Source of the DNA: an uncultured Candidatus Saccharibacteria bacterium | GTDB lineage: Bacteria > Patescibacteriota > Minisyncoccia > Phycocordibacterales > UBA9973 | Direction: 5' to 3' | Assembly (NCBI GenBank): GCA_964426515.1 | Contig: CAYRQO010000002.1 | Location: forward strand, 2,873 to 33,105 | Length of the DNA stretch: 30,233 nucleotides | Part shown: positions 1 through 21,337 of the stretch, piece by piece | How the letters are laid out: the number at the start of each line of letters is the position of its first letter | How positions within the stretch are numbered: position 1 is the first letter of the stretch | Position numbers and translations under genes: made by a program | Notes under the pieces: generated by a model | What the model was told of the DNA's origin: nothing | Databases searched by the model: none | The model's input: only the letters and a program-made list of their open reading frames with translations

Positions 1-30
1 AGAGTTGGTATATTAAAGAAAAAAGAATAG
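1..30 (+). CDS. Possible 3' end of an upstream gene entering the window (RVGILKKKE*)
   Basis: Open frame from base 1 to TAG at 28-30, followed by an AT-rich intergenic region; too short to identify. Confidence 0.35.
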   Translation, partial: RVGILKKKE

Positions 31-109
31 GTACTTAGATGCCATAAAACCGTTTCTTGATGTTTCATTTAAAATTTAAAAAATTCCTCAAATATGATAA
101 TATAATATA

Positions 110-946
110 ATGACTACTATAATTGACGGCAAGAAGATAAGTTTGGAAATTCTTGAAGAAGTAAAAAAGGAAATAGCTCTTCTGCCTTTTCAACCAATTT
201 TCTGTGATATACTTATCGGCGACGATCCTGCCTCTGCTCAGTATGTACAAATGAAAGCCAAGAAAGCTGAATCTCTGGGGATTAAATTTCACAAAGTACA
301 CCTTCCTAAAACAATTGGCACAGAGAAAATAATCTCAGAAATAAAAAAATTAAATAATTTCGAAAACATGTGTGGACTGATTGTCCAACTTCCCCTTCCA
401 ATGAAATTTGATAAACAAATTATTCTCAACGCTGTTTCTCCCCTTATTGACGTTGATTGTCTAGGTATAGAAACTAGTAATTTATTTTATTCAAACAAAG
501 GATCGCTCTGTTTTCCCACAGCTTTAGCTTGCATAACAATTTTAGATTCAATAAAAATAGACTTATCAAAAAAGAAAATCGTTGTTATTGGTCAGGGAGA
601 TTTGGTTGGTAAACCAGTTACTCACCTACTTCGTTCTCGAGGTCTTACTGTTGAAACAATTAGAAGTAATACCGAGAATAAAGATAAAATGATTAAGGAA
701 GCAGATGTCATAATCTCTGGTGTCGGTAATGGTAAGTTTATTACAGGGGAAATGATAAAAGCAGGAGTTATAATTATTGATGCCGGAACATCTGAATCAA
801 ATGGCTCAATTGTCGGCGACGTAGACCTCGATTCAGTTCAAGATATAGCCTCATTTGTTTCTCCTGTACCAGGTGGTGTAGGCCCTGTAACAGTAGCCAT
901 TCTCCTCCAAAATGTCTTAACTGTAGCTAAGAATATAAAAAAATAA
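110..946 (+). CDS. folD: Bifunctional methylenetetrahydrofolate dehydrogenase/cyclohydrolase
   Basis: IIDGKKIS start, YVQMK (YxxxK), GLIVQLPLP, DVD, VVIGQGDLVGKP, PVPGGVGPVTVAIL. Confidence 0.96.
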   Translation: MTTIIDGKKISLEILEEVKKEIALLPFQPIFCDILIGDDPASAQYVQMKAKKAESLGIKFHKVHLPKTIGTEKIISEIKKLNNFENMCGLIVQLPLPMKFDKQIILNAVSPLIDVDCLGIETSNLFYSNKGSLCFPTALACITILDSIKIDLSKKKIVVIGQGDLVGKPVTHLLRSRGLTVETIRSNTENKDKMIKEADVIISGVGNGKFITGEMIKAGVIIIDAGTSESNGSIVGDVDLDSVQDIASFVSPVPGGVGPVTVAILLQNVLTVAKNIKK

Positions 947-947
947 A

Positions 948-2309
948 TTATTTCCCAGCAATAATACTTGCATAACCTATATAGGTAAGTGGGGTGAATT
1001 TTTTAAGTTCTTTTTTAATTTTTGGAGAGACTTTTAAATTATCAATAAAAATAGAAAAGTTATCCATAGTTATCTGTTTACCTCGAGTTAATTCTTTTAG
1101 AGCCTCATATGGAATGGGATAATTTTCTCGACGAAGAACAGTTTGAATGGCTTCAGCTATAATTTCTGGATGTGCAAGTAAATCTTCTTTTATTTTATTT
1201 TCATTTATTGTAATTTTGCTTAACCCTTTTTGAAGAGAAAGATAAGCAAGTAAAGAATGACCAAAAGCTGTCCCCATAGCTCTTTCGACTGTTGAATCAG
1301 AAAGATCCCTCTGAAGTCTAGAAATAGGTAGTTTACGAGCAAAGAACTCAAATAATGCATTCGCCAAACCCAAATTTCCTTCACTATTTTCAAAATCGAT
1401 TGGATTGATTTTGTGAGGCATAGTAGAAGATCCTACCTCTCCTTTTTTAGGTTTTTGAGTAATCCAATTATCAGAAATATATCTCCAAATATCTTGGTTA
1501 AAATCTAATAAAATAGTATTTATCATGCGAATGCGATCAAATAAAACTACATAACTGTCGTGGCATTCTATTTGTGTAGTAATTAAATTTGCTTCAATTT
1601 TAATCGAGCGACTTTTACTTAAATCAGCGATAAATTTTTGAGTAAAATCTTGCCAATCAACTTTTGGATAAGCTGCTAAATGCGCATTCCAATTACCAGA
1701 AGCTCCATTTAATTTTGCTTGAATTCTACCATTTCCAAGATGAGACATTTGATTTTCAAGTCGAGCAACAAATACTTTTATTTCTTTACCAAAAGTTGTT
1801 GGTGAAGCTGGTTGTCCGTGAGTTCGAGAAAGCATTGGTAAATCTTTATATTTTTGGGCTAAAATATTTAGTTCAGAAATAATTTTGTTAATTTCTGGAA
1901 TTATCACCATCTGAAGTGAATCAGAAAGTATAAGTGCGTATGATATGTTATTAGTATCTTCCGAAGTCAAAGCAAAATGCACCCATTCAATGCTATCTTT
2001 CAAAGATGTTTTACTAAGTTTTTCTTTAATAAAATACTCTACTGATTTTACATCATGGTTTGTCGTCGTTTCTAAATATTTTATTTTTTGGTATGAAGCA
2101 TCGTCAAATTTTTTATATAAATTCTCTAAAATTTTTATTTCATTTTGACTAAATTTTCTCAAACCTGTTTTTGAAGACAAAGAGAGAGAAATTAAATATC
2201 TCGCTTCCATCATCACTCTATATTTCATTAAAGCCTGTTCGGAAAAATACGGGGCCAAAGCTCTCGTTCGTTCATAATATCTTCCATCTAGAGGATTTAT
2301 TGCTTGCAT
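948..2309 (-). CDS. purB: Adenylosuccinate lyase (E. coli/Bacteroidetes-like type)
   Basis: INPLDGRY, TTNHDVKSVEY, HFALTSEDTNN, SRTHGQPASPTT, signature GSSTMPHKINPIDFENSEGN, SRLQRDLSDST. Confidence 0.97.
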   Translation of the reverse strand: MQAINPLDGRYYERTRALAPYFSEQALMKYRVMMEARYLISLSLSSKTGLRKFSQNEIKILENLYKKFDDASYQKIKYLETTTNHDVKSVEYFIKEKLSKTSLKDSIEWVHFALTSEDTNNISYALILSDSLQMVIIPEINKIISELNILAQKYKDLPMLSRTHGQPASPTTFGKEIKVFVARLENQMSHLGNGRIQAKLNGASGNWNAHLAAYPKVDWQDFTQKFIADLSKSRSIKIEANLITTQIECHDSYVVLFDRIRMINTILLDFNQDIWRYISDNWITQKPKKGEVGSSTMPHKINPIDFENSEGNLGLANALFEFFARKLPISRLQRDLSDSTVERAMGTAFGHSLLAYLSLQKGLSKITINENKIKEDLLAHPEIIAEAIQTVLRRENYPIPYEALKELTRGKQITMDNFSIFIDNLKVSPKIKKELKKFTPLTYIGYASIIAGK

Positions 2310-3268
2310 TATATTTTTTCTAAATTTTTAGTAATTCTTTCCATAATGGGAACATTAAAATCATGTTCAAAAAATTTACCTGTGATCGTCTCATATATTT
2401 CAATATATCGACGAGATAGCTCTGCTACCAGTTCTACAGGTGCATCTGGAATAACTGCGTCTTTGTACGGATCACAATTATCTTTAAACCATAATCGAAG
2501 AAATTCTTTATCAAAATATTCTGGTTCTTCTCCTTTATTAAAACGTTCATCATATGTATTTGATTTCCAATATCTAGAGGAATCGGGGGTATGTATTTCG
2601 TCTATAAGTGTTAACTTTTTATTTTCATCTAATCCAAATTCGTATTTAGTATCAACAAGAATTAAACCATGCGCTTGGGCGACCTCTTGTCCCCTTTTAA
2701 ATAAGGCAATAGCAATTTTTTCTACTTCATCGGCCAACTCTTTTGAAAGGTAGCCCTCAGATACTATCTCAGCTGGAGTTATAGGTCGATCATGCTCATC
2801 TGACTTCGTAGTTGGAGTAAAGACTGGTTCACTTAATCTTTGATTTTTCTTCATACCTTCAGGTAAGATAAAGTTACCAAAGTCTCGCTTTCCATCTTTA
2901 TAATGAGTCCAAAGTGAAGTCCCTGTCACCCCCGTTATATATCCACGTACAACGCACTCTATGGGAAGAGGTTCACATTTCTTTGCAACCAATACATTAG
3001 GGTCAGGAATACTTATTACATGATTTTGAATAATATCTTTTGTGTTTTCAAACCAGAAAGCACTTATCTGATTTAGTACCTCTCCTTTTAATGGTACATG
3101 GGCAATAACGCGATCAAAAGATGAATGGCGATCTGTTGATACTAAAACAATTTTATCTTCCATTGTATACACATCTCGAACTTTACCTATCTTTCTCTCT
3201 CCTATATTTTTAAAATCTGTCCCTTTCAACACATCATTTACATGTTCTTTTATTGTTTCTATATTCAT
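2309..3268 (-). CDS. purC: SAICAR synthetase (long, ~320 aa type)
   Basis: GKVRDVY, STDRHSSFD, VVRGYITG, FTPTTK, LVDTKYEFG, DEIHTPDSSRYW, DKEFLR. Confidence 0.96.
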   Translation of the reverse strand: MNIETIKEHVNDVLKGTDFKNIGERKIGKVRDVYTMEDKIVLVSTDRHSSFDRVIAHVPLKGEVLNQISAFWFENTKDIIQNHVISIPDPNVLVAKKCEPLPIECVVRGYITGVTGTSLWTHYKDGKRDFGNFILPEGMKKNQRLSEPVFTPTTKSDEHDRPITPAEIVSEGYLSKELADEVEKIAIALFKRGQEVAQAHGLILVDTKYEFGLDENKKLTLIDEIHTPDSSRYWKSNTYDERFNKGEEPEYFDKEFLRLWFKDNCDPYKDAVIPDAPVELVAELSRRYIEIYETITGKFFEHDFNVPIMERITKNLEKI

Positions 3269-3274
3269 AAAATA

Positions 3275-4315
3275 TTATTTAAAAACGACTTTTTTATTAC
3301 CATTAATAATTTTACCAAGTTCAAACATTTTATAATCTGAATATTTTTTTAAAACCTCTTTTATTTTTTCTTTTTCTTCCCTGGGTATTATAAGCATCAA
3401 GCCGATCCCCATGTTGAAGGCTCGATACATTTCTTCATCTTCAATTTTACCAATTTTTTGCATAAGAGAAAATATTGGCAAAATAGGCCATGAATTAAGG
3501 ACTATTTCGGCGTCTAAATTTTTTGGCAATATGCGTGGAATATTTTCAATAAATCCTCCACCTGTAATATGTGCAATACCATGAATGTTAATATCAACAT
3601 CTAGCATTTCTAAAACGGGCTTCGAATAATTCACATGAACCTTTAGAAGTGCTTCACCCACAGTCTCACCAAGCTCTTCTACTTTCGTGTCTACTTTATA
3701 TTCTCCAATTTCAAATAAAACTTTCCTCGCAAGAGAAAAGCCATTCGTATGCAAACCACTAGAAGCAAAGCCTAAAATAATATCTCCTTCTTTTATCTTT
3801 TCTCCTGTCACAATTTTATCTTTCTCGACGACACCTGTAATACACCCAGCGATATCGTGCTCACCATCTTTATATGTTCCCGGCATTTCGGCCGTCTCTC
3901 CTCCAATAAGTGAGACTCCATTTTCCCTGCAAGCTTTGGACATACCTGAAACCATCGCCTCCATAACATTGGGGTCTAATTTATCGTGAGCAACATAATC
4001 AAGGAAAGTATAAGCCCGTGCTCCCATGGCCAGTAAATCATCACAGCAATGATTCACGATATCTTCGCCAACTGAATCGTATTTATTCATCATCCGAGCA
4101 ACCGAGAGTTTGGTACCTACTCCATCAATACTCTGAACAAGCACAGGGTGTTTATAACTTTTTAAAATTTCACCAATATCATAAAGCCCTCCAAAACTTC
4201 CAATACCAGTGAGTACAGCCTTCGTATGGGTGCTTGCGACGTCATCTTTAATCCGACGAACAGTCTCATTCCCTGCATCAATATTCACTCCCGCATCTTT
4301 GTATAAATCTGCCAT
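3275..4315 (-). CDS. purM: Phosphoribosylformylglycinamidine cyclo-ligase (AIR synthetase)
   Basis: YKDAGVNI, IGSFGGL, DGVGTK, IGGETAEMPG, SSGLHTNGFSL, AHITGGG, FNMGIG. Confidence 0.97.
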   Translation of the reverse strand: MADLYKDAGVNIDAGNETVRRIKDDVASTHTKAVLTGIGSFGGLYDIGEILKSYKHPVLVQSIDGVGTKLSVARMMNKYDSVGEDIVNHCCDDLLAMGARAYTFLDYVAHDKLDPNVMEAMVSGMSKACRENGVSLIGGETAEMPGTYKDGEHDIAGCITGVVEKDKIVTGEKIKEGDIILGFASSGLHTNGFSLARKVLFEIGEYKVDTKVEELGETVGEALLKVHVNYSKPVLEMLDVDINIHGIAHITGGGFIENIPRILPKNLDAEIVLNSWPILPIFSLMQKIGKIEDEEMYRAFNMGIGLMLIIPREEKEKIKEVLKKYSDYKMFELGKIINGNKKVVFK

Positions 4316-4318
4316 AAA

Positions 4319-4837
4319 TTATTTATTTAAATATTTTTGATATCCAATCTCTTGTAATTTCTCACCTTTGGCTTTATTATCAGCTTCCATTTTTATTTTA
4401 TAAGCTATCATTTTATCTTCTAAATCTTTGTCGGACATCGCTAGCATTTGCACAGCAAGTAATCCTGCATTCTTAGCAGCATTAATACCGACTACTGCGA
4501 CAGGTACTCCAGGGGGCATATTCACAGCAGAAAGAAGTGAATCCAGACCTTCTAGTGCTTTGGCTTTAATGGGGATAGCAATAACTGGTAAGGGACTTAA
4601 AGCAGCCAAAACACCCGCTAAATGAAATGATCCACCTGCACCTGCTATCAAAATCTTATTGCCACGAAGAGAAGCTTCAACTGCATATTTATGTACCAAG
4701 TTTGGTGCTCTGTGAGCAGAAGCTACCGTCATCTCATAAGTTACTTCAAATTCCTCAAAAATCTTTGCAGCTTCGGACATTACTTCTAAGTCTGAATCTG
4801 AACCCATAATTATTCCTACTTTTATATTATTTGCCAT
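4319..4837 (-). CDS. purE: PurE (N5-CAIR mutase / AIR carboxylase family)
   Basis: IIMGSDSD, SAHRAP, IAGAGG-x-x-HLAG, PVIAIP, GLDSLLS, MPPGVPVA, NAGLLA. Confidence 0.96.
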   Translation of the reverse strand: MANNIKVGIIMGSDSDLEVMSEAAKIFEEFEVTYEMTVASAHRAPNLVHKYAVEASLRGNKILIAGAGGSFHLAGVLAALSPLPVIAIPIKAKALEGLDSLLSAVNMPPGVPVAVVGINAAKNAGLLAVQMLAMSDKDLEDKMIAYKIKMEADNKAKGEKLQEIGYQKYLNK

Positions 4838-4852
4838 AAATTTATTTTACCA
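4838..4852 (-). promoter_or_regulatory. Extended -10 promoter (TG-G-TAAAAT) 6 nt before the purE ATG; probable leaderless start
   Basis: Minus strand reads TGGTAAAATAAATTT-ATG; no Shine-Dalgarno sequence. Confidence 0.55.
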
Positions 4853-4872
4853 TTATTTAATAAAAATATAAA

Positions 4873-6360
4873 TTAATGCTTAAAATGTCGAAAGCCAGTT
4901 GTCACCATAGCCATGCCATATTTATCAGCTACATCGATAGAGGCTTGATCATTTTTTGATCCACCCGGATGAATTACAGCAGAGATACCAACACTTGCGG
5001 CTAATTCAACGCAATCAGGGAATGGGAAAAATGCTTCAGATGAAAGCACTGAACCTTTAAGTGAAAAGCCAAATTTTTCTGCTTTATCAATAGCTTGTTT
5101 CAGCGCATCAATACGTGAAGTTTGCCCACAACCCATAGAGATAAGTGTACCGTCTTTTACTAGAGAAACAGAATTAGATTTCAAATGTTTCGTGGCGATT
5201 GAAGCCATGAGTAAATCTTTCTCTTCTTGACTGGTTGCTTTACGTTTTGAAACTGTTGTAAGATTCTTTATCTTTTCTACTTGATTATCTCTATCTTGAG
5301 CAAGTATTCCTGTGAAGCAAGTCCTCATTTGCTTTATTAGTAAATTAGGATTTTTCCATTTCAAAATACGAATATTCTTTTTCTCTGTTAATATATCAAG
5401 CGCCCCTTTTGTAAAATCCGGAGCAATTATAACCTCTACAAAAAGTTCTTGCTCTTTTATCAAACCTGCAATGTCTTTCCCTATTTCCCTGTTTGAAGCA
5501 AGTATTCCCCCGAAAGCTGAAAGAGGATCTGCGTAGTAAGCAGCCTTGTAAGCTTCTAGGAGTTGCCCTTCTTTACGTACAGCAAGTCCACAAGCATTCA
5601 TATGCTTAATAATAGCGAAAGCGGGATCTGTAAAATCATAGACTGTCTCTATCGCAGCTTCTGTATCAATAAGATTATTGTATGAAAGTTCTTTTCCATG
5701 AAGCTGAATAAAACTCTCATCTAAATTGCCTATAAACTCCCCTTTCTGATGTGGGTTCTCTCCATATCGAAGGGGTGACCCTTGGAAATATCCGCAGATG
5801 GCCATATCATAAGAATTAGTAATATTAAATGCATCACCAGCAAATTTCTTACGTTCCTCGATTGTAGTTTCATTTCCCTTGCTCAATATCTCAATAAGAT
5901 TTATATATTGATGCTTAGAAGGAATAACAACAACATCATTGAAATTCTTAGCAGCAGCACGAATAAGAGCTATGCCTCCGATATCAATTTTCTCTATTAT
6001 CTCGGCCTCACTGGCACCACTTGCGAGAGTTTCTTCAAATGGATAGAGATCAACTATAACTAAGTCTATATCTTCGATATTATTTTCTTTTTTTTCTTTC
6101 TGATCATTAACATTATCTCGGCGGTTTAGAATACCACCGAAAATGTGAGGCTCGAGAGTCTTCACCCTACCATCGAAAACTGCTGGGAAATTAGTAATGG
6201 TTTCTACTTCAGTTACAAGAATCCCTAACTTCTTTATGAAGTCTGCTGTCCCTCCTGTTGAAATAATTTTTACGTCATGTTTGAAGAGAAGTTTAACAAT
6301 ATCTTCTAAACCGTCTTTATTGAAAACAGAAACTAGTGCTGTTTTTATTTTTTTATTCAT
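4873..6360 (-). CDS. purH: Bifunctional AICAR transformylase / IMP cyclohydrolase
   Basis: ALVSVFNKDG, STGGT, GRVKTL, IDIGGIALIRAAAKN, LRYGENPHQ, LSYNN, AFGG, GQTSRIDA, SEAFFPF, RHFKH terminus. Confidence 0.97.
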   Translation of the reverse strand: MNKKIKTALVSVFNKDGLEDIVKLLFKHDVKIISTGGTADFIKKLGILVTEVETITNFPAVFDGRVKTLEPHIFGGILNRRDNVNDQKEKKENNIEDIDLVIVDLYPFEETLASGASEAEIIEKIDIGGIALIRAAAKNFNDVVVIPSKHQYINLIEILSKGNETTIEERKKFAGDAFNITNSYDMAICGYFQGSPLRYGENPHQKGEFIGNLDESFIQLHGKELSYNNLIDTEAAIETVYDFTDPAFAIIKHMNACGLAVRKEGQLLEAYKAAYYADPLSAFGGILASNREIGKDIAGLIKEQELFVEVIIAPDFTKGALDILTEKKNIRILKWKNPNLLIKQMRTCFTGILAQDRDNQVEKIKNLTTVSKRKATSQEEKDLLMASIATKHLKSNSVSLVKDGTLISMGCGQTSRIDALKQAIDKAEKFGFSLKGSVLSSEAFFPFPDCVELAASVGISAVIHPGGSKNDQASIDVADKYGMAMVTTGFRHFKH

Positions 6361-6415
6361 ATGATATTAATTAAAGTGGAACAAAATATTTAATAAAAAA
6401 TTATTAATAATATAA

Positions 6416-7963
6416 TTACTCAAACTCCGTTGTTGCTGGAGGTTTAGGCGTAACATCGAAAAAGACCCGAACTATATCTTTGTGTTTAGTTAAAGCATTA
6501 GTAATTTCATTCACAATCTCCTCGGAGAAATAGTAGCCCTTTACAGTCATAAAATCGACAGTCTGAACCGCACGAACAACGAGAGAATGTCCGTATACTC
6601 GCTCGTCGCCTTTCACTCCGACAGAATTGACTCCAAGCAATGCAACTATGAGCTGAGAAATATTTTTGGCAATATCGTATTTTTTGATTATATCACTCAC
6701 CGTCTTGTCGGCTTGGCGGACTAGTTCAATCTTTTCTTTTGTTACTTCTGTTCCAACAATTCTCAAATATAATCCAGGGCCAGGAAATGGATTTCTCTCA
6801 TGAATAGCCGAAGGTAAATTCAAAGCTCGAGCAAGTTCACGAACTTCATACTTGAATAAATTCTTGAAAGGATGCAAGTCTTCTACTTCCCAAGCGAGCC
6901 CCACATTGTGATGTGTCTTGATCATAACCGACTGGCCTGCCTTACCGCTCTCTATAATATCTGTCGCAAGAGTCCCCTGCACTATAAAGCCTGCATTATA
7001 CTTAGTAATTTGTTCTTCAAATATTCTTTTATAAACATTGCGAAACTGTGTTCTCTTCTCCTCTCCATCTATAGTAGTACCAACATTTTTTATAAATTCT
7101 GTACTTGCTTCAATTACTATCAAATTCTTCACTCCGGCACTTTCGGCATTTATTTTCAATTCATCAAGCTCACCTTCTCGAAGTCCTCCAGTGTCGATAG
7201 CTACACATATAAGTCTTTCGTTCAAGACTGGAGCAAGAAGACAGGCTAAAGTAGTAGAATCTACTCCACCTGAAACACCAAGAACAACGTTGTGTTTCGT
7301 TTTACTATCTTTCAATTTCTCATTTATATCATCGAGAGTTTCCTTTTGTATTTGTTTTATTAAGTCAACAGGATCCCAATCTTTTACACATTCTGCCATA
7401 TTTAAAAAGTTATGAAGAATCTTTTTACCTTCTTTGGTATCGACGACTTCAGGATGAAATTGAATTCCCATTACGTGATTCATTTTATCTGTCATAGCGG
7501 CGATTCCTCCTGATGTAGCGATAGAAGTAAAACCGTTCGGAAGTGTTGATACAGTATCGCCGTGACTTGCCCAGATTTGGGTTTTACTGGGGACGCCACT
7601 AAAAAGTGGATGAGAAATATCTAGAGTAACTTCCGCTGGACCATACTCACGGTGTGATAAGGGTCGATCAACTATACCGCCTTTTTTATGTGAGAGGAGT
7701 TGCATTCCATAGCAAATACCTAGTATTAAATATTTTGAACCAGTTGTATCGAGAGATTTTGGAAAATCTGGAGCTCCATCATTGTGGACACTGAAATTTC
7801 CTCCTGAAAGTATAACTGCCTTTGGAGTGTTTCCTTCTAGCCATTTATCAACAGACTTTGGTGGAAGTATAATACTTCTAACTCCAAGCTCACGAAGAGT
7901 CCTACCTATCACAAGTGTATATTGTGACCCATAATCCACGATAAGGATTTGCATAGAATTCAT
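6416..7963 (-). CDS. guaA: GMP synthase (glutamine-hydrolysing)
   Basis: DYGSQYT, GICYGMQL, WASHGD, QFHPEV, SGGVDS, IKTHHNVG, LFKYEVR, PFPGPGL, GVKGDER, KPPATTEFE; alternative start at 7954. Confidence 0.96.
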   Translation of the reverse strand: MNSMQILIVDYGSQYTLVIGRTLRELGVRSIILPPKSVDKWLEGNTPKAVILSGGNFSVHNDGAPDFPKSLDTTGSKYLILGICYGMQLLSHKKGGIVDRPLSHREYGPAEVTLDISHPLFSGVPSKTQIWASHGDTVSTLPNGFTSIATSGGIAAMTDKMNHVMGIQFHPEVVDTKEGKKILHNFLNMAECVKDWDPVDLIKQIQKETLDDINEKLKDSKTKHNVVLGVSGGVDSTTLACLLAPVLNERLICVAIDTGGLREGELDELKINAESAGVKNLIVIEASTEFIKNVGTTIDGEEKRTQFRNVYKRIFEEQITKYNAGFIVQGTLATDIIESGKAGQSVMIKTHHNVGLAWEVEDLHPFKNLFKYEVRELARALNLPSAIHERNPFPGPGLYLRIVGTEVTKEKIELVRQADKTVSDIIKKYDIAKNISQLIVALLGVNSVGVKGDERVYGHSLVVRAVQTVDFMTVKGYYFSEEIVNEITNALTKHKDIVRVFFDVTPKPPATTEFE

Positions 7964-8050
7964 AAACCCATAATATATTAAAATCGAAAATAAGAAAAGG
8001 TTAGGGCGATTTACTTACAGTTTATTTATATGTTAATATGTGAATATATT

Positions 8051-9529: not shown

Positions 9530-9536
9530 CAATAAC

Positions 9537-9553
9537 TACAGGTCTTGCCTGTA
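9537..9553. repeat. Palindrome copy 1, AGG-N5-CCT family (TACAGG-TCTTG-CCTGTA)
   Basis: Perfect 6-bp stem with 5-nt loop in the 31-nt guaB-purA gap. Confidence 0.6.
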
Positions 9554-9560
9554 AAAATAT

Positions 9561-10889
9561 ATGCAAAATAATAATAAAGGGTTCATAGATGTATTAGTCG
9601 GTCTTCAGTGGGGAGATGAAGGGAAAGGCAAGAATATAGATGAACTTCTTTCAAATGGTGTTTACTCGGCGGTTGCACGTTTTCAAGGTGGAGCAAATGC
9701 AGGACATACTATCAAATCTGGAGATGTCACTTTCATCGGGCATATCATTCCTTCAGGATGTCTTAGAAAAGATATCGAGCTATACATAGGCAACGAAGTT
9801 GTAGTTGATACTGTATCACTTATGAAAGAAATATCCCAACTGAAGGATTTAGGTTTCGATATTGTTCCACGTCTTTATATCTCAAATCGGGCAAAATTGG
9901 TATCTTATCTACACCCATTTATAGATCAAGCAGAAGAAGCATACAGAAGTAAGGGTGGCGATAAGATAGGAACAACTTCTCGTGGCATAGGCCCTGCGTA
10001 TAGCGACTCTCGTTCTAGAAAAGGACTGCTTGTTGGAGATTTAAATTTTACTGATTTTGAACATAAAGAAAAAGAATTGACAGAATTACATATGGACATA
10101 CTAAATATGTATCAAAATGAATGTGACTTCAAAATAGACGGGGGTAAAATAAAAGAAGCAAGAGAAAAGTGGCTAGAATCTTTAGAAGAATTAAAAAAGT
10201 TACAAATTTGTGATTTATCTTTCTTAATACAAAAGAGATTGAGTGAAGGAAAGAATATCCTAGCTGAAGGGGCACAAGCAATCATGCTCGATATAGACTT
10301 CGGAGACTACCCAAATGTTACTAGTTCCAATACTCTCCCTGCCAATGCTTGTCTCGGTCTTGGAGTGCCTCATAGTGTCATAAGGAATATCTATGGAGTT
10401 ATCAAGGCCTATACTACTAAAGTAGGCGGTGGTACATTCCCTGCTAGAATCCAAGATGAACCAACAGAAAAGCTTTTCCAAAATGCTGGCCATGAATTCG
10501 GAGCGACAACTGGACGACCACGTATGTGTGGTTGGCTTGATCTTTTTGCTCTTCGCTATGCCATAGGCCTCTCAGGAGCAAATAAAATTTTTATAAACAA
10601 AGCCGATATTTGTCCAACTGATAATATTGAAGTAGTCACTCATTATGAAATAAATGGAAAAACTTTAGAAGAATTCCCTCTTCGTTTAAATGAAGTCACA
10701 GGTGTGCAGACAGACAAGCTTCTTGGCTGGGGAGAAAAAAATTCTGGAGTAAATATTAAAGAGAAAGTTTCTCCTGCACTTAATACATATATAAATTATA
10801 TTAAAGACAAACTCTCAGACTTGGATGTAGAAATTATATCAGTTGGCACAGGACCAGACAGGGAGAATTCTATAAATTGGGAGAAATAG
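9561..10889 (+). CDS. purA: Adenylosuccinate synthetase (divergent)
   Basis: GLQWGDEGKGK, RFQGGANAGHT, IIPSG, GTTSRGIGPAY, EGAQ, YPNVTSSN, EFGATTGRPR, GWLD. Confidence 0.96.
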   Translation: MQNNNKGFIDVLVGLQWGDEGKGKNIDELLSNGVYSAVARFQGGANAGHTIKSGDVTFIGHIIPSGCLRKDIELYIGNEVVVDTVSLMKEISQLKDLGFDIVPRLYISNRAKLVSYLHPFIDQAEEAYRSKGGDKIGTTSRGIGPAYSDSRSRKGLLVGDLNFTDFEHKEKELTELHMDILNMYQNECDFKIDGGKIKEAREKWLESLEELKKLQICDLSFLIQKRLSEGKNILAEGAQAIMLDIDFGDYPNVTSSNTLPANACLGLGVPHSVIRNIYGVIKAYTTKVGGGTFPARIQDEPTEKLFQNAGHEFGATTGRPRMCGWLDLFALRYAIGLSGANKIFINKADICPTDNIEVVTHYEINGKTLEEFPLRLNEVTGVQTDKLLGWGEKNSGVNIKEKVSPALNTYINYIKDKLSDLDVEIISVGTGPDRENSINWEK

Positions 10890-10920
10890 AAAAGGCATCC
10901 TATTCTGGGACACCTTTTTT
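10890..10920 (-). terminator. Intrinsic terminator between convergent purA and the purD/small-ORF transcript
   Basis: Minus-strand RNA folds AAAAGGUGUCC-7 nt-GGAUGCCUUUU, fully paired with two G-U pairs; the plus-strand version has two mismatches but a longer U tract, so it may be bidirectional. Confidence 0.7.
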
Positions 10921-10937
10921 GTTAAAGAAGAATTTTT

Positions 10938-11132
10938 TTAATCTCCTTCAGCATCATGAATACTTTCAAAACGAAGATCCTCAATAAATGCTTGGTCTAC
11001 AACACAATTTTCTGGAAGAACTTTATTAGATGGTTCTATAAGATCAAAAACATTTTCCTCAAGGGATACTTTAGGAACAATTTCTGACAGCGCTACTATA
11101 GTGACATCAGTATTATCATGTGCAATTATCAT
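10938..11132 (-). CDS. Small acidic hypothetical protein (64 aa)
   Basis: Fills the gap between the purD stop and the terminator; 15 D/E versus 3 K/R; no recognised motif. Confidence 0.5.
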   Translation of the reverse strand: MIIAHDNTDVTIVALSEIVPKVSLEENVFDLIEPSNKVLPENCVVDQAFIEDLRFESIHDAEGD

Positions 11133-11172
11133 AATAATAATTATTTATTGGTTCACTTTATGTTACCAAATT

Positions 11173-12465
11173 TTACTGATGTGTTGCAAGCGTTTTTTTA
11201 CCTATGTCTTTTCTATAATACATTCCTTCAAAAGAGATTTCTTCTACTCTATTATATGCTTTTGCCAGTACTTCTTCTAAAGTATCTCCAACGGCAGTCA
11301 CTCCTAGGACTCGTCCACCATTTGTAACTAAATTTCTATTATCAGCGTACTTAGTACCAGCATGGAAAACTATTACACCATCTTGTTTTTCTGCTTCTTC
11401 TATCCCAGTAATTATTTTCCCCTTCTCATACATCTCTGGATAACCACCTGAAGCCAATACAATATTACAAGCAGAAAGATTCTTCCATTTTATTTCTATT
11501 TCAGATAATTTTTTATCAACACACGCTTCAATAATATTCAACAAATCAGTTTCCAAAAGTCGCATATATGTTTGTGTTTCTGGGTCCCCAAATCGTGCGT
11601 TGTATTCTAAAATTCTGGGTCCACCTTTTGTTAAAATTAAACCCGGATACAATATTCCTTCATATGGAATACCTTCTCTCTTCATAGCACTCAAAGTCGG
11701 CGCAATTATTTCTTCTTCTATTTGTTCCATTAATTCTTGTGTCACAAAGGGCAATGGCGCAATCGTCCCCATGCCACCTGTATTCAAACCTGTATCATTT
11801 TCACCGACACGTTTATGGTCTTGCGAAGGTGGAAAAACTTTATATGAAATACCATCAGAAAATACATGAATGGAAATTTCTGGACCGATTAAGAATTCCT
11901 CTATCACAACTTCGTTACCAGATTCTCCGAATACTTTTTTAACCAATATGTTTTCTAAAGCAATTGTTGCTTCTTCTTTTGTTTGAGCAATAATTACACC
12001 CTTACCAAGTGCAAGACCACTAACCTTTACTACAATCGGCATACTTTTATTTTCTAAATATTTAACTGCTAGCTCGTAATTATTAAATACTTCAAATTCC
12101 GCCGTTGGTAAATTATTTCTTTTCATAAATTCTTTCGAATAGGCCTTGGAAGATTCCAGTTGAGCTGCCGCTTTGGTCGGACCAAAAATACGTAATCCCT
12201 CCTTTTGGAATTCATCTACAATACCAAGAGCCAATGGGTCATCGGGTATAGCTAAGGTTAAATCTATCTTTTCATTTTTTACAAATTCCAGTATGGCCTG
12301 TATATCAGTAGCTTTAATATAAACATTTGTACCCAAACTTTCTGTCCCGCCATTACCTGGTGCAAAAAATAAGTCTCCAGCTCTTTCCGATTGTTTTAAC
12401 TTCCAACCAATTGCATGTTCCCGCCCCCCACTCCCGATTATTAAAATTTTTTGTTTATTAACCAT
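11173..12465 (-). CDS. purD: Phosphoribosylamine-glycine ligase
   Basis: GSGGREHA, APGNGG, QLESSK, GLALGKGV, QDHKR, GLNTGGMG, EYNARFGDPETQ, TNGGRVL. Confidence 0.97.
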   Translation of the reverse strand: MVNKQKILIIGSGGREHAIGWKLKQSERAGDLFFAPGNGGTESLGTNVYIKATDIQAILEFVKNEKIDLTLAIPDDPLALGIVDEFQKEGLRIFGPTKAAAQLESSKAYSKEFMKRNNLPTAEFEVFNNYELAVKYLENKSMPIVVKVSGLALGKGVIIAQTKEEATIALENILVKKVFGESGNEVVIEEFLIGPEISIHVFSDGISYKVFPPSQDHKRVGENDTGLNTGGMGTIAPLPFVTQELMEQIEEEIIAPTLSAMKREGIPYEGILYPGLILTKGGPRILEYNARFGDPETQTYMRLLETDLLNIIEACVDKKLSEIEIKWKNLSACNIVLASGGYPEMYEKGKIITGIEEAEKQDGVIVFHAGTKYADNRNLVTNGGRVLGVTAVGDTLEEVLAKAYNRVEEISFEGMYYRKDIGKKTLATHQ

Positions 12466-13183
12466 GTGGATATAATTTTATTGCTAATTCTTTACACTCT
12501 GCTAATATTTTTTCTTCATTAGGTAAAACTAATGAACTTTCTCGATGAAATTCAGAAACAGTTCCTTCACTAAAGTCTTTTAATAATTCTATTTGTACTT
12601 GATGTTCTACAGGCAAGACTCTCTCTTGTAAACTTTCAGCCGTATCATCTTCTAAAATTGGCACTTGATGTCTTTTAAGAATTGCTCCTTCATCAAATTC
12701 AGCTGTAACTCTATGAGCGGTTGCTTCAGTCCAAAAATTTCTTTGTGTTTTTTTTACAAAACAAAGTCTTGCTTGATGCACTCGCTTTCCATACATTCCT
12801 ATTCCTCCAAAATCTCCATTACCTTTTGGATCAAGTGGCCCTGGATGTTGATTTACTATTCTATCAGAATATATATTGATAACATTTTCTGGAGTCATTA
12901 CAAGCCATCCATATTGACCAATAAAATCTACTTCTCTTTTTATACATTCCTTTATTATTTTTTCCCCGAATTCATCTTTATTTTTAAAATCTTTTGATTT
13001 GATTATCAAAATATCCTTATCATTAATTCCAAGCTTTCGAGCTTTTTCTATTCCCCCAGCATTCTCACGATTAGTAATTACTAAAACTGGAAAAATTTTA
13101 TCTTTTAAAATACCATTCTTACAGGCCTTAATTATGGCTTCCATAGTTGTACCCCCACCTGAAATAAGTAATGCAATTTTCAT
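12458..13183 (-). CDS. purN: Phosphoribosylglycinamide formyltransferase with C-terminal extension
   Basis: ALLISGGGTT, NQHP (catalytic Asn/His), FGGIGMYG, TAHRV, FDEGAI (catalytic Asp). Confidence 0.93.
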   Translation of the reverse strand: MKIALLISGGGTTMEAIIKACKNGILKDKIFPVLVITNRENAGGIEKARKLGINDKDILIIKSKDFKNKDEFGEKIIKECIKREVDFIGQYGWLVMTPENVINIYSDRIVNQHPGPLDPKGNGDFGGIGMYGKRVHQARLCFVKKTQRNFWTEATAHRVTAEFDEGAILKRHQVPILEDDTAESLQERVLPVEHQVQIELLKDFSEGTVSEFHRESSLVLPNEEKILAECKELAIKLYPHG

Positions 13184-13187
13184 AAAA

Positions 13188-14591
13188 TTAATTTTTAAAT
13201 TTTAGACTATCATATTTTATTTCTTTTTCGTGTTCAAAAATTGGTAAAGGATATTCTCCGTTAAAAGCCGAGAGGCAAAATCTATCTTTAGGTAAATTTG
13301 TTGCTTTCACCATTCCATCTATTGATAAAAATGTTAAGGAGGTTGCTCCTATAAATTCGCAAGTTTCTTTGATTGTTTTTTGAGAAGAAATTAAGTTCTT
13401 TTGTTGAGGAGTATCAATACCATAAAAATCTGGAAATTTTACCGGAGCCGAACAAACTAAAAAATGCACTTCTTTGGCGCCAGCATCAAAAAACATTTTT
13501 ACTATTTGTTTTGATGTGTTCCCACGAACAATAGAATCATCGATTATACCAACTCTTTTACCCGCAATAATACTTCGAAGCACAGTTAATTTCATTTTTA
13601 ACTTTTGTTCACGATTTGCTTGAGTTGGCTCAATAAAAGTTCGATGAATATATCTATTTTTATTTAAAGCCATCTCAAAAGGAATACCTGAAGCATGCGA
13701 ATATCCAATAGCCGCAGGAATTGCTGTTTCTGGTACTGGAACAATAACATCTAATTTAATTTTAGGATTTTCCTGAAAAAGAATTTTTCCAAAATTTTTA
13801 CGTGTTTGGTAAACAGATTGTCCTAAAATCATACAGTCATGTCTTGAAAAATAAACAAATTCAAATATATCAAACTTTGGATCTACTTTCGATATAATTT
13901 TGCTCGTCATCCCCTTTTTTGAAATACAGACAATTTCACCAGGAAGAACTTCACGAATAAATTTTGCTCCCACAGTTCGAAGCCCACAAGTTTCCGATGA
14001 AATGACTTTTTCCTTACCATTTTCACCAAAAACAAGTGGGCGAATACCATAAGGGTCTCTAAAAGCGACCAATTCTTTTGTCGAAAGCACTACACAAGAA
14101 AAAGCTCCAGTAAAAAGTGGATATGCCGCCTCTACAGCTTTTGATAGTGATAAACCTTTTTTAAAGTAATAACCTAAAGCTTTTGCCATTAATTCTGAGT
14201 CGGAGTTATTTTTAGTTGGAATTTTATTTTTTTCTAAAAAATCTTCTAAAGCTTTTGTGCTAGGTAAATTTCCATTATGAGCAAAAGCGATTTTTCCATT
14301 AATTATAATTGGTTGAGCATGTTTAGAATTTGTTCCTCTGGAAGTTGAGTATCTATTATGTCCAATTGCTGCAAACCCTGAAAGTTTTTTAATGTCTTTT
14401 TCTGTATAAACTTGGCTGACTAACCCAGAACCTTTATGATGAAAAATGTTTTTGCCATCAGTTGAGACAATCCCCGTTTGTTCTTGACCTCTATGTTGAA
14501 GAGCAAATAATCCGAAATACGTTTGACGAGACGCAACATCAGGTGCATTAAAAATACCAAAAACAGCACATTTTTCATTTAAGTTATTCAT
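13188..14591 (-). CDS. purF: Amidophosphoribosyltransferase
   Basis: Short propeptide then CAVFG (N-terminal nucleophile Cys), LQHRGQ, GHNRYST, AHNGNL, RDPYGIRPL, VPVPET, PRPP motif IIDDSIVRGNT. Confidence 0.97.
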   Translation of the reverse strand: MNNLNEKCAVFGIFNAPDVASRQTYFGLFALQHRGQEQTGIVSTDGKNIFHHKGSGLVSQVYTEKDIKKLSGFAAIGHNRYSTSRGTNSKHAQPIIINGKIAFAHNGNLPSTKALEDFLEKNKIPTKNNSDSELMAKALGYYFKKGLSLSKAVEAAYPLFTGAFSCVVLSTKELVAFRDPYGIRPLVFGENGKEKVISSETCGLRTVGAKFIREVLPGEIVCISKKGMTSKIISKVDPKFDIFEFVYFSRHDCMILGQSVYQTRKNFGKILFQENPKIKLDVIVPVPETAIPAAIGYSHASGIPFEMALNKNRYIHRTFIEPTQANREQKLKMKLTVLRSIIAGKRVGIIDDSIVRGNTSKQIVKMFFDAGAKEVHFLVCSAPVKFPDFYGIDTPQQKNLISSQKTIKETCEFIGATSLTFLSIDGMVKATNLPKDRFCLSAFNGEYPLPIFEHEKEIKYDSLKFKN

Positions 14592-15385
14592 TTTCTAAAA
14601 TAATTTATTGCATTTCTAAATAAAATAATTCCTTCTCCTTCTTCAGTCAAAGCTCCAGCGGACAAGTCTTTTTTGTTTTTTTCTAATTTTTTATGTTGCC
14701 AAAGTGGTGAATGATGAAAAAATTGTGCTCGTTCTGGATGTGGCATCATTCCTAGCACTCGTCCATTATATCCCAAAATTCCAGCGATATCATAATTTGC
14801 ACCATTTGGATTTGCTTCTAAGTTTTGAAATTTACAAATATCACCTTTTGTGTAAGTAAAAGCAATTTCTTTTCTCTTTTGCATTATTTTGTATTCTTTT
14901 GTAGTTATTAAGTATCTTCCCTCTCCGTGAGCAATTGGTAATGATATTTTCTCTAAATTACCAAGCCAAGGACTTCTGCCCTCAACCTTTAAATCTACCC
15001 AACGATCAATATATTGTGCATTCTTATTGTGAGTTAAAGCTCCAGGTAAAATTCCGAGATTAGTTAGAATTTGAAAGCCATTACAAATTCCAATCATTAA
15101 AGTGTCACGAGATAAAAATTCTTTTATCTGGTTTCCTAAATGATTTTTAAGCTTATTTGCATAAGCTTTACCACTACCAGTGTCGTCTCCATAAGAAAAT
15201 CCTCCTGGAAAAGCCAATATTTGATATTCTAAAAGCATTTTCGGTTTGGCAATTAAATCATTGATGTGTACAATATCAGCAATACCTCCCGCTTGTTCAA
15301 AAGCAAATTTTGTTTCTTCTTCACAATTAAGTCCATAGCCAGACATAATAATAATTTTTGGAGTTTTTATTTTTATTTTTTTCAT
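14588..15385 (-). CDS. purQ: FGAM synthase glutaminase subunit
   Basis: GYGLNCE, FPGGFSYGD, GICNGFQIL (Cys), IAHGEG, NPNG, GMMPHPER (His/Glu); ATGA overlap with the purL stop. Confidence 0.95.
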   Translation of the reverse strand: MKKIKIKTPKIIIMSGYGLNCEEETKFAFEQAGGIADIVHINDLIAKPKMLLEYQILAFPGGFSYGDDTGSGKAYANKLKNHLGNQIKEFLSRDTLMIGICNGFQILTNLGILPGALTHNKNAQYIDRWVDLKVEGRSPWLGNLEKISLPIAHGEGRYLITTKEYKIMQKRKEIAFTYTKGDICKFQNLEANPNGANYDIAGILGYNGRVLGMMPHPERAQFFHHSPLWQHKKLEKNKKDLSAGALTEEGEGIILFRNAINYFRK

Positions 15386-18360
15386 TTCATTTTATTGGAA
15401 AAATCATGATAAAGCGTAAATAATTTTTTAACATTAGTATCAACTACTTTTTTATTTTTAGCATCAAAAATTATAAACTTACTATTTTTAGAAACTGTTC
15501 CGAGTTTACAACAAGAAATTCCTATTACTTCTTTCTCAAATTTCTTTATATTTTCTTTGTCGACAGTCACCACAATCCTACCTTGACTTTCAGAAAAAAG
15601 AGCTGAATCTATTGATGAAAAATTGCCGGGTAAATTTTTTAAAGAAATTTCACACCCAAACATTCCACCAGCAGATGCTTTTGCTAAAGCTATGGCAAGT
15701 CCTCCAGAACTGACAGAAATAGCCGATGAAACAATCTCTTTCGCAATAATATTTTCTAGGACAGAATAAATTTTTAAATTCTTCTTTAAATCTACTTTTG
15801 GTACATCATTACCAATAGCATTTGTATTTGTTTTATTGTTTTTGGCAAGCAACTTATAATATTCACTAGCTCCAAGTTCATCATAAGTTTCTCCTAACAG
15901 ATAGATATCATCTCCAGAATTCTTAAATTCCGGAGAAATAGTTTTATAAATATCTGGCATTACACCAATGGCAGATATCAACAATGTAGGTGGAATAGAA
16001 ATTGCCACTTGATTTCCTTTTTTATCATATCCTTTAAAATCATTAAACATACTATCTTTTCCAGAAATAAATGGGGTCCCATAACCAACAGCATATTTAT
16101 GACAAGCTTTGAGAGAATCAACTAATTCAGCTAATCTATTTTTATCATAAGAAGAACACCAGCAAAAATTATCTAGAATAGCTAAATGAGACAATGTTGC
16201 CCCAGCGCAAAGAGCATTTCGAATAGCAGTATCAATTGCACATGCAGCCATATCATAAGTACTAATTAAAGAATATGAAGGATAAAGACTACTTGAAAGC
16301 ACCACGCCCTTTGAAGAAGCAAGTACTGGGCGAAAAACTTGCGCATCAGTATTTATACGCCCACGCCCAGATAGTGGTTTCAAAACTGAAGATGCTTGTA
16401 CTTCATGATCGTATTGCTCAGAAATAAAAGAAGAACCTCCAATATTTTTATTTTTTAATAATTCTTCAAAAACTTTAGTACGGGAACCCTCTTTAGAAAT
16501 TTTTGGTTCTTCATATTTGTATATAATGGAAGAACTTTCTAAGTGTTTTTTGGGCAATCCATCATGTAAAAATTTCAAAGAAATATTCATAATTTCTTTA
16601 TTATTATAATTTACAATACATTTTCCAGAATTTGTAAATTCTCCCACAATTGTTGCTTCAACTCCTCGACTATCCATTAATTTTTTAAATGTATTCCATT
16701 TTTTCTTTGGTACCGATAAAGTCATGCGCTCTTGCGATTCAGAAATCCAGATTTGCCAAGGACTCAAGCCAGGATATTTTAAAGGAACTTTTTCAAGAAA
16801 AACAACAGCACCGTTGCACTCTTTTGCCATTTCGGCAATTGAACAAGAAATTCCGCCAGCACCATTATCAGTAATACTACTATATAAATCCATAGCACGA
16901 GCCTCTTTAACAATTGCATCACTTAATTTTTTTTGAGTAATTGGATCACCAATTTGCACGGCTGTTGCAGGACTTGAAGAATCCATTGCCACAGATGAAA
17001 AAGTTGCACCATGAATCCCATCAGCTCCAACCCTACCACCAGCAATTACAATATAATCACCATTTTGTGCTTGTTTTTTATGGGAAAATTTGCCATTTAT
17101 TTTCTGTGGAATAATTCCTACGGTGCCAACAAAAACCAACGGCTTACCTCGAAATAAATCATCATACTTAACAAAACCAGAAACTGTTGGAATTCCAGAA
17201 CAATTACCACCAACATTAACACCCCTTATCACTCCTTCCATAATTCGCTTCGGAGAAAGCATTTTATGGGTTAAATTTTTATCTTTATATAAAGCTCGTT
17301 CATCTTCTGGATTACCAAAACAAAAACCGTAAACATTCGCTACAGGCTTAGCACCTAAACCAAAACCCATTGTATCTCTATTTACTCCAACTATTCCTGT
17401 AATTGCTCCACCAAAGGGATCTAATGCTGAAGGGCTATTGTGAGTTTCAACCTTATGAGTTACTAAATAATTTTCATCAAAAATAATTCCACCAGAGTTA
17501 TCAGAAAAAACTGAAACACAAAAATCATTTTTGCCTTTTTGTTTACGAATCAAATTAGTGGCACCTTTAATATAAGTTTTATATAAGCCCTCAGTTATCT
17601 CATCTATTGGATTAGCAAAAATTGTATGCTTACAATGTTCAGACCAAGTTTGAGCTAAAGATTCAATTTCAATATCATTTGGATCTCTTCCTAATTTTTT
17701 AAAATGTGCCTGAATTATCTTCATGGATTCTAAATTAAGAGCCAGGGGTCCACGATGTATTTTATTTTCATCCATAATCCCTTCTTTCCCAATTTTTATT
17801 AACTCTTCGTTGGAAATATTGAGAGGGACCTTAATTACTAAGTTCTGTTTTGGCAAAATAACTTTTGGAATTTTTAAAGGTAAATTATTTTTAATTTCTC
17901 TTTCATTAAAAATATTGCATTGTTCAATAAGGGGATTATGTAGAGACAGAGCAATTTTTTTAATATCCTCTAATTCAATTTTTCCAGAAATTAAAAAAAT
18001 TTTTGAAGTATAAATTTCGAATTTTGAATTTTCTGTTAAATGTAATAAGTCATTAATTGTTTCTTTGGCAGTGTGGGCAATATTATCAGTTACTCCTGGC
18101 AAAAAACCGATTTCAATTATATAAGTAAACTTTTTTTCTTTAGGTAATTCATTGATTGATGATTTTTCTAGAATGGGATTAGTTAGGGTATTAGCGATTT
18201 TTTGAATTTCGTGTTTTGAAAATTTAGAATCAATAACATAAGAATCAATTATAGATACACCCAAAAACTTATTTTTAAAACCAAAACCTGCCCATGATTT
18301 TAAAAATAGCCTTGTACGGCTATCTTCTATTTGGGGTGTAATATATATTCTAGAAAGCAT
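15382..18360 (-). CDS. purL: FGAM synthase large subunit with two N-terminal PurS-like repeats (992 aa)
   Basis: QTWSEHCKH, KVETHNSPS, PFGGAITG, DNGAGG, SESQERM, QYDHEV, LDNFCW, ISGKDSM, FSESQGR; start set at ATG 18360 (MLSRIY). Confidence 0.95.
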   Translation of the reverse strand: MLSRIYITPQIEDSRTRLFLKSWAGFGFKNKFLGVSIIDSYVIDSKFSKHEIQKIANTLTNPILEKSSINELPKEKKFTYIIEIGFLPGVTDNIAHTAKETINDLLHLTENSKFEIYTSKIFLISGKIELEDIKKIALSLHNPLIEQCNIFNEREIKNNLPLKIPKVILPKQNLVIKVPLNISNEELIKIGKEGIMDENKIHRGPLALNLESMKIIQAHFKKLGRDPNDIEIESLAQTWSEHCKHTIFANPIDEITEGLYKTYIKGATNLIRKQKGKNDFCVSVFSDNSGGIIFDENYLVTHKVETHNSPSALDPFGGAITGIVGVNRDTMGFGLGAKPVANVYGFCFGNPEDERALYKDKNLTHKMLSPKRIMEGVIRGVNVGGNCSGIPTVSGFVKYDDLFRGKPLVFVGTVGIIPQKINGKFSHKKQAQNGDYIVIAGGRVGADGIHGATFSSVAMDSSSPATAVQIGDPITQKKLSDAIVKEARAMDLYSSITDNGAGGISCSIAEMAKECNGAVVFLEKVPLKYPGLSPWQIWISESQERMTLSVPKKKWNTFKKLMDSRGVEATIVGEFTNSGKCIVNYNNKEIMNISLKFLHDGLPKKHLESSSIIYKYEEPKISKEGSRTKVFEELLKNKNIGGSSFISEQYDHEVQASSVLKPLSGRGRINTDAQVFRPVLASSKGVVLSSSLYPSYSLISTYDMAACAIDTAIRNALCAGATLSHLAILDNFCWCSSYDKNRLAELVDSLKACHKYAVGYGTPFISGKDSMFNDFKGYDKKGNQVAISIPPTLLISAIGVMPDIYKTISPEFKNSGDDIYLLGETYDELGASEYYKLLAKNNKTNTNAIGNDVPKVDLKKNLKIYSVLENIIAKEIVSSAISVSSGGLAIALAKASAGGMFGCEISLKNLPGNFSSIDSALFSESQGRIVVTVDKENIKKFEKEVIGISCCKLGTVSKNSKFIIFDAKNKKVVDTNVKKLFTLYHDFSNKMK

Positions 18361-18416
18361 ACTTCTTATAATATAATATTTAAAATTTAAAGACAACCAA
18401 TTAATTTGCTTTTAAA

Positions 18417-18545
18417 TTATACTCCAATATCTTTCAATATTTCCATCGCATAACTTGCTGGATCTACTTTTGAATAGGTCTTTACTATTACCCCATTCTC
18501 AATTAGATATGAAAAGCGTTTTGTGAGAAGTTTTGTGTCTTTTTT
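18417..18545 (-). pseudogene. 3' remnant of a BCP/peroxiredoxin-like gene
   Basis: TKRFSYLIENGVIVKTYSKVDPASYAMEILKDI resembles the BCP/PrxQ C-terminus; no CxxxxC core; upstream in-frame sequence is low-complexity AT-rich. Confidence 0.5.
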
Positions 18546-21320: not shown

Positions 21321-21337
21321 AAAATCAAGAAAATTAG

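Follow-up and report, generated by a model that had tools for sequence, protein, structure and literature searches.

What is a near-complete pathway of de novo purine synthesis doing in a genome from the Candidate Phyla Radiation (CPR), and how did it come to be there? The question is raised by a gap-free stretch of 30,233 nucleotides (C2:2873-33105, hereafter the window), which starts directly after a 10-N scaffold gap in contig CAYRQO010000002.1 of the metagenome-assembled genome (MAG) GCA_964426515.1, here called G000. An earlier note, written from the letters of this DNA, had described a purine island at window 110-18360, gained or kept as a unit by a lineage unusually prototrophic for purines. 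With modest confidence, we read this stretch as an intact, lineage-typical supercluster for de novo purine synthesis that belongs to the Nomurabacteria family (Paceibacteria, Patescibacteria), and we favour lateral exchange among Nomurabacteria together with recombination over simple descent, because the island is patchily present, because its trees conflict with the tree of the adjoining housekeeping genes and because its halves form a mosaic.

The purine island and its host contig

Scans with NCBIfam and Pfam models identified 14 contiguous genes at 110-18360; their four blocks of alternating direction agree with those given in the earlier note. For 11 of the 14, among them PurF, PurD, PurM, PurC, PurB and PurH, all of full length, an NCBIfam model of the assigned enzyme was matched above its curated cut-off; FolD and PurN reach no cut-off, and PurL misses its own by a small margin. 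The island and its right-hand junction are laid out as follows.

110-946, + strand: folD, bifunctional methylene-tetrahydrofolate (THF) dehydrogenase and methenyl-THF cyclohydrolase; full-length match to about 30 FolD models, E 1e-51 to 1e-66
948-2309, - strand: purB, adenylosuccinate lyase of the long E. coli-type form; NF006764, 624.5 bits, cut-off 446
2309-3268, - strand: purC, phosphoribosylaminoimidazole-succinocarboxamide (SAICAR) synthetase, where the central block begins on the left; NF009251, 423 bits, cut-off 371
3275-4315, - strand: purM, aminoimidazole ribonucleotide (AIR) synthetase; TIGR00878, 381 bits, cut-off 236
4319-4837, - strand: purE, class I-type mutase of N5-carboxyaminoimidazole ribonucleotide (N5-CAIR); TIGR01162, 189 bits, cut-off 150
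4873-6360, - strand: purH, aminoimidazole carboxamide ribonucleotide (AICAR) transformylase and inosine monophosphate (IMP) cyclohydrolase; NF002049, 595 bits, cut-off 402
6416-7963, - strand: guaA, guanosine monophosphate (GMP) synthase; NF000848, 471 bits, cut-off 400
8030-9529, + strand: guaB, IMP dehydrogenase; TIGR01302, 623 bits, cut-off 481.5
9561-10889, + strand: purA, adenylosuccinate synthase, where the central block ends on the right; NF002223, 404 bits, cut-off 402
11173-12465, - strand: purD, glycinamide ribonucleotide (GAR) synthetase; TIGR00877, 537 bits, cut-off 288
12458-13183, - strand: divergent purN-like GAR formyltransferase; TIGR00639, 114 bits, cut-off 150; Formyl_trans_N, 87 bits
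13188-14591, - strand: purF, glutamine phosphoribosyl pyrophosphate (PRPP) amidotransferase; TIGR01134, 432 bits, cut-off 350
14588-15385, - strand: purQ, glutaminase subunit of formylglycinamidine ribonucleotide (FGAM) synthetase; TIGR01737, 182 bits, cut-off 178
15382-18360, - strand: purL, mdPurL type; TIGR01736, 513.9 bits over residues 223-1001, just below the cut-off of 525.75
18397-18662, no strand: right junction, divergent spacer between purL and terC/alx, within which DNA homology to the related genome G101 starts at about 18544

The divergent guaA and guaB are separated by a spacer of 66 bp, a terminator-like hairpin lies between the convergent purA and purD (10890-10918), and the purN-like gene overlaps purD by 8 nt. 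The putative, divergent PurN is assigned on its Formyl_trans_N domain and on its position between purD and purF. The bit scores of FolD stay below the narrow equivalog cut-off of every FolD model matched in NCBIfam, and the protein is only 57-64% identical to the copies in the genomes G007 and G020, the latter being Candidatus Nomurabacteria bacterium GW2011_GWD2_36_14 (LBRL01000001).

The host MAG comprises 872 kb (0.87 Mb) in 133 contigs, is 88.8% complete with 2.4% contamination, and has no 16S gene in its assembly; members of its genus range from 0.4 to 1.0 Mb. The 37 PurA loci that lie closest (58-90% identical) belong to records with the names Candidatus Nomurabacteria, Paceibacterota, Parcubacteria or Patescibacteria, along with some mislabelled as ‘Saccharibacteria’. 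The NCBI lineage of Nomurabacteria runs through the Patescibacteria group and the Parcubacteria group to Nomuraibacteriota. These uniformly Patescibacteria-type records and the genome size of 0.87 Mb bear out the CPR host that the earlier note had thought probable, and support its assignment to Candidatus Nomurabacteria.

A binning or assembly error could in principle have joined an island from another organism to Nomurabacteria housekeeping genes, and the fragmentation into 133 contigs, the 2.4% contamination and the scaffold gap at the window start would all suit such an artefact. We consider it extremely improbable. Of the sampled words, 96% occur in the wastewater metagenome run X1, which is probably the source sample, and an independently assembled Logan contig from this run (record 8) covers 17626-19151, from purL to terC, with zero mismatches. 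Because this contig crosses the boundary without a mismatch and because depth is even (5.6-13.9) across window 1-20000, the join between the island and the housekeeping DNA is genuine, and the suspicion of a chimera at the right-hand edge is laid to rest. Furthermore, terC-eno-murF to the right of the island is syntenic with G101 at 82-89% DNA identity, and the same island sits on the 704-kb Nomurabacteria contig of G020. The activated-sludge run X4, from another study, contains an island with a DNA identity of about 93-94%. Runs X3 and X5-X12 held small word shares only and were left out of the habitat inference. Short joints in the run comparison (sides of 20-40 letters, 90% likeness) were considered as rearrangements and were treated as cross-matches from related organisms.

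Distribution and mosaic history

The distribution of the cluster was counted with purD above its curated cut-off as the marker.

Genus: 23/93 species (25%); 18/64 high-quality
Family: 113/401 species (116 at E 1e-60; 29%); 10/45 genera
Other families of the order: 0/16 species
Class: 40/401 species (10%)
Phylum: 60/401 species (15%)

The phylum tally and the family tally each contain a single genome with an unpublished flag (G262 and G731), and these two genomes underlie no further claim. A single sister genus accounts for 80 of the 116 family matches, and another genus has 0/51. About 30 of the 37 named Nomurabacteria/Paceibacterota loci share the order purB-C-M-E-H-guaA / guaB-purA / purD-N-F-Q-L. 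In the literature, complete de novo IMP synthesis was reported for 32% of 399 CPR MAGs (PMC11608272), and smaller studies found none (PMC9530719). Because of the purD counts, the recurrent gene order and the published 32%, the cluster is lineage-typical in the family and not exceptional. The claim of an unusually prototrophic lineage is supported only in part: the marker occurs in 25% of the genus and 29% of the family samples, and prototrophy itself is not shown, no PRPP synthetase, purK or pyrB having been found, as described below. The cluster is syntenic, yet far from universal, which leaves standing the earlier proposal that a cluster universal and syntenic in its clade would have undercut.

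To place the island against its host, we built a maximum likelihood tree from seven proteins of the dcw cell-division cluster beside it (1901 columns, 69 species). In this housekeeping tree, G000 groups with G090 and G101 (support 100, 91% identity), then with G019/G099, and then with G071. These five nearest species have neither purD nor purL, nor a guaB above cut-off, and at least 12 changes of state are needed to place purD on the tree. DNA homology to G101 begins just beyond purL. G090 carries unrelated small genes at the site of the island junction, where its sequence is gap-free and lacks terC. G101 was considered as proof of an empty site, and this use of it is weakened because its contig has a scaffold gap only about 350 bp away from the breakpoint.

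The island tells a different story from that of the housekeeping genes. In the tree of the backbone genes, G000 grouped with L026, G020, G069 and G007, and G047 was placed elsewhere. Approximately unbiased (AU) tests on the island rejected what the housekeeping tree would lead one to expect, the grouping G000+G007+G047 (p 4e-7) as well as G000+G007 (p 0.016). The central block (purC-purA) in turn made G000 and G020 sisters with support 100; AU tests rejected G020+G069 on the central genes (p 0.006) and G000+G020 on the backbone genes (p 0.0001). Protein identity between G000 and G020 is 85-91% in the central block (PurC 91%, PurA 90%), 63-81% in the flanks and 54-91% in housekeeping proteins (median about 73%). 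Base composition differs between the same parts. The GC content at third codon positions (GC3) is 0.13-0.18 in purB and purN-purL (purB 0.178, purN 0.132) and 0.21-0.29 in the central block, against a genome mean of 0.237 (standard deviation 0.041); the low values, about 1.5-2.5 standard deviations below that mean, occur only in purB and purN-purL, and overall GC is 0.344 in the island and 0.334 in the rest of the window. Patchy distribution and tree conflict, which are among the marks expected of a horizontally acquired island, were both found, with the host tree drawn from a single locus. Most likely, the island of G000 was not simply inherited by vertical descent; it would have passed laterally among Nomurabacteria and been rebuilt by recombination, so that the central block would share its latest ancestry with the G020 island and the flanks (purB and purD-purL) with the L026 lineage. 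In substance, the earlier view that the cluster was gained or kept as a unit is supported by the order kept in about 30 species, by the patchy presence and by the trees, which point to lateral exchange.

Among 22 related islands of the genus, 18 have contigs that extend to either side, and in all of these the backbone purB-C-M-E-[slot]-D-N-F-Q-L is the same. Between purE and purD, the slot is taken by purH-guaA-guaB-purA in four islands (G000 included) and by purK in 10, and is empty in eight; genomes with purK in the slot or with an empty slot keep purH elsewhere. Identity to the window protein, compared over loci L020-L056 and the genus islands, is bimodal for purM (23-40% or 65-91%), purN (25-31% or 62-72%) and purF (51-56% or 58-83%), each of which comes in two or three very different types with the gene order unchanged. 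Because these distinct types share one slot, the comparison suggests that single genes have been swapped in place for distant homologues within a fixed scaffold.

The G020 island also has an insert of 4.6 kb between purD and purN (L011:15765-19948). Of its three ORFs (open reading frames), one has RhuM and Fic/DOC domains and two have no Pfam match; the insert looks like a small mobile or defence element.

The lysS gene of the window (27710-29215) occupies the same position between greA and mraZ in 90 genomes of the genus and exists in two types, about 42% or 65-83% identical to the window LysS. Because G090 and G101, the nearest species, carry the other type in spite of neighbouring genes that are about 90% identical, lysS has been replaced in place. 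LysS was therefore rejected as a species marker, as two xenologous types occupy one slot.

Alternatively, the family ancestor would have had the supercluster, which this species kept and which was repeatedly deleted en bloc elsewhere, all five nearest species included. Because the same arrangement is found in the sister genus that supplies most family matches and in some members of this genus, the supercluster is old; genome reduction is the CPR norm, no mobility genes were found, and the G007 island falls in the same clade as that of G000. The vertical account would, however, have to absorb the 12 or more changes on 69 species, the conflict between the island and housekeeping trees, the incompatible histories of the two island halves, and the different chromosomal location of the island in G000, G020 and G007. 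We regard it as rather unlikely, with a real minority share of the probability.

Several points weigh against lateral exchange. The species tree represents one 8-kb locus adjoining the island, which may not mirror the history of the genome, and this locus has itself undergone gene replacement, as the two LysS types show. Some of the AU groupings were picked after the trees had been seen. Loss is frequent in CPR bacteria, so that multiple losses could yield the same patchiness, and G007, a fairly close species, belongs to the same island clade. There is no integrase among the annotated ORFs and no transfer RNA gene in the window, and no convincing direct repeats flank the island, the left edge of which is unanchored and lost in the scaffold gap. 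The central blocks of G000 and G020 are only 79-82% identical in DNA, and any exchange between these two genomes must therefore be old. Completeness of the five sister genomes, none of them closed, is 88-100%, and the functions of the genes are predicted ones.

That a donor outside CPR, for example among the Bacteroidota, recently contributed the island or just its central block is very unlikely. PurC and PurB match the subfamily models NF009251 and NF006764, which a minority of reference genomes reach (for NF009251, two of 14 control genomes exceed the cut-off, and the output did not identify which two), and the GC content of the central block is slightly higher. Against such a donor, all 37 close PurA loci come from Patescibacteria-type MAGs, the GC3 of the central block is typical of the G000 genome, and the order of the central block is kept across two genera. 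We conclude that exchange and recombination among Nomurabacteria remain the favoured account.

Enzymes, precursors and flanking genes

Based on the family assignments, the island would lead from PRPP to IMP through PurF, PurD, the PurN-like protein, mdPurL with PurQ, PurM, class I PurE, PurC, PurB and PurH, and from IMP to adenosine monophosphate through PurA and PurB and to GMP through GuaB and GuaA. The earlier statement that every step from PRPP to IMP is present goes too far: in place of a separate purS there is a PurS-like domain fused into PurL, and the assembly has no purK.

A search for purS with PF02700 was negative for the window, for the assembly as a whole and for four relatives. 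PurL has 992 residues from its ATG, in an ORF that stays open up to a TTG at 18396, and carries an N-terminal extension of about 215 residues ahead of the typical part; its Pfam domains are the linker and AIRS. A sequence search of the N-terminus against the PDB gave no match. We therefore modelled residues 1-235 with AlphaFold2 from an alignment of 16 sequences (mean pLDDT, the predicted local confidence, 81). The model resembles the N-terminal domain and linker of the large PurL of Salmonella and human (Foldseek E 1e-8 to 1e-6, about 240 columns) and also, across some 80 columns, matches 1VQ3 and 1GTD, which are single chains of PurS. On this fold match, PurL is predicted to carry a fused PurS-like N-terminal domain of the mdPurL type, so that all components of FGAM synthetase would be present: PurL, PurQ and, within the N-terminal domain of PurL, the PurS-like fold. 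An FGAM synthetase of mdPurL and PurQ has been described in Methanomicrobia and Methanococci that lack purS (Brown et al. 2011, PMC3261824). The archaeal system and the present one have in common about 200 extra N-terminal residues in PurL, a separate PurQ and the lack of a purS gene; they differ in that the host here is a CPR bacterium, and the likeness is drawn through the fold of Salmonella and human large PurL and of PurS.

PurE contains the motifs SAHR and AGAGGSFHLAG, which we take, from E. coli PurE and human PAICS, to be those of class I. Of the PurK and class I PurE pair that turns AIR into CAIR, only PurE was found: neither TIGR01161, tblastn nor phmmer with the PurK of the genus detected a purK in G000 (at 88.8% completeness), and G020 likewise lacks one. 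Class I-like PurE without PurK is known from methanogens, Desulfurococcales and some Thermococci, for which high CO2 or non-enzymatic formation of N5-CAIR has been proposed as a bypass (PMC3261824). By analogy, the PurK step is probably bypassed here by non-enzymatic N5-CAIR formation at high CO2/bicarbonate. Class I motifs and a genome without purK are shared with these archaea; in contrast to them, 10 of the 22 related genus islands do carry purK, in the very slot that holds purH-guaA-guaB-purA in G000.

The one-carbon donor appears to be covered: with folD in the island and glyA elsewhere in the genome (G000:C20:7939-9087), FolD and GlyA would supply 10-formyl-THF, and fhs was not found in G000. 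For PRPP, no synthetase was detected in G000 by TIGR01251, PF13793 or a genus-specific hidden Markov model (HMM) of Prs run without filters, and the sole phosphoribosyltransferase-like ORF of the genome is ComF-like. TIGR01251 and PF13793 also gave no PRPP synthetase in G020, G066, G047 and G074, which are 96-100% complete. The presence of prs follows that of the island across the genus (16 of 23 purD-positive species versus 5-7 of 70 purD-negative ones), and the seven island bearers without prs include G020 (98% complete), G066 and G047 (both 100%). Two substitutes were considered and rejected: PhnN, as another route to PRPP, is absent, the search having matched guanylate kinase only (gmk is present in G000), and clustering of the non-pur ORFs near the islands of prs-less genomes, as candidates for a replacement enzyme, gave only antisense shadow ORFs. 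pyrB was not found in G000, G020, G100 or G004 and is present in G007; because G000 lacks it, pyrimidines must be acquired. Thus, of the genes that the earlier note had wished to see in this genome, glyA is present and prs, fhs and pyrB were not found, and purine prototrophy of G000 is not shown.

If the absence of prs in a subset of island-bearing Nomurabacteria is real, their conserved PurF-led pathway would run on PRPP, or on a precursor beyond ribose 5-phosphate, that is imported from a host, or on PRPP made by an unrecognised enzyme, and the island would then be a host-primed purine pathway and not true prototrophy; we regard this reading as rather unlikely.

Beside murF, G007 has a divergent Prs-like gene (G007:C12:115726-116673; L122:3634-4683) that scores 167 bits with TIGR01251 and is about 25% identical to the Prs of the genus. 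The corresponding site in G000 (window 21292-22589) holds four small orphan ORFs, and no homologue of the G007 gene was found anywhere in the G000 assembly.

Rightward of the island lie terC/alx, eno, a small orphan operon, murF, ftsI, ftsL, rsmH, mraZ, lysS, greA and mrdA. TerC (18663-19583) is 97% identical to the G101 copy, above the values of neighbouring genes. The TerC/Alx family is often under control of a yybP-ykoY riboswitch; an Rfam scan (E 0.1) found no such riboswitch upstream of terC/alx or elsewhere in the window, and no other riboswitch or Rfam family in the whole window, the purL/terC spacer included. This spacer contains a 74-residue ORF (18417-18641, - strand) that has no Pfam match and lies just left of the start of G101 homology. 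At mraZ (26860-27477), the longest ORF has 205 residues and a TTG start 61 residues ahead of the MraZ match, and the true start is probably downstream of this TTG. Beyond the scaffold gap to the left (G000:C2:1-2862, L231) are an AMP-binding, acyl-CoA ligase-like gene and a gene resembling β-ketoacyl-ACP synthase III (KAS III/FabH), accessory genes unusual for a CPR genome whose adjacency to the island is only putative.

Comparison with known systems

These results indicate that de novo purine synthesis should not be seen as a rare exception among CPR bacteria: between a tenth and a third of lineages have it, as a conserved and portable module that close relatives gain, lose and patch. Nomurabacteria thereby offer a good natural experiment for asking which modules of biosynthesis are retained in ultra-small bacteria. 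At the same time, the missing Prs, PurK and pyrimidine synthesis call for caution in MAG surveys that equate a complete pathway with independence from a host.

The purEKBCSQLFMNHD operon of B. subtilis is the familiar case of a single locus for nearly all steps from PRPP to IMP, with a separate PurQ, and the island shares both features. It differs from the operon in its four transcription blocks, in its gene order, and in having no purK, no separate purS and, by the Rfam scan, no purine riboswitch; it adds purA, guaA, guaB and folD.

Closer counterparts show that the cluster is already known in kind and common in the family, and what the present analysis adds is the set of three variants of the slot, the island's mosaic history, the finding that the nearest species are without the island, and the unexplained lack of prs in part of the island bearers. 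From purB to purL, the order and orientation are identical in GW2011_GWD2_36_14 (LBRL01000001) and in Paceibacterota SO_2016_GW1_82 (JBAYKP010000009), both of which have PurL of the mdPurL type and 63-91% protein identity to the window. GW2011_GWD2_36_14 is set apart by its insert between purD and purN, by a different chromosomal location and by a central block and flanks that differ in their nearest relatives.

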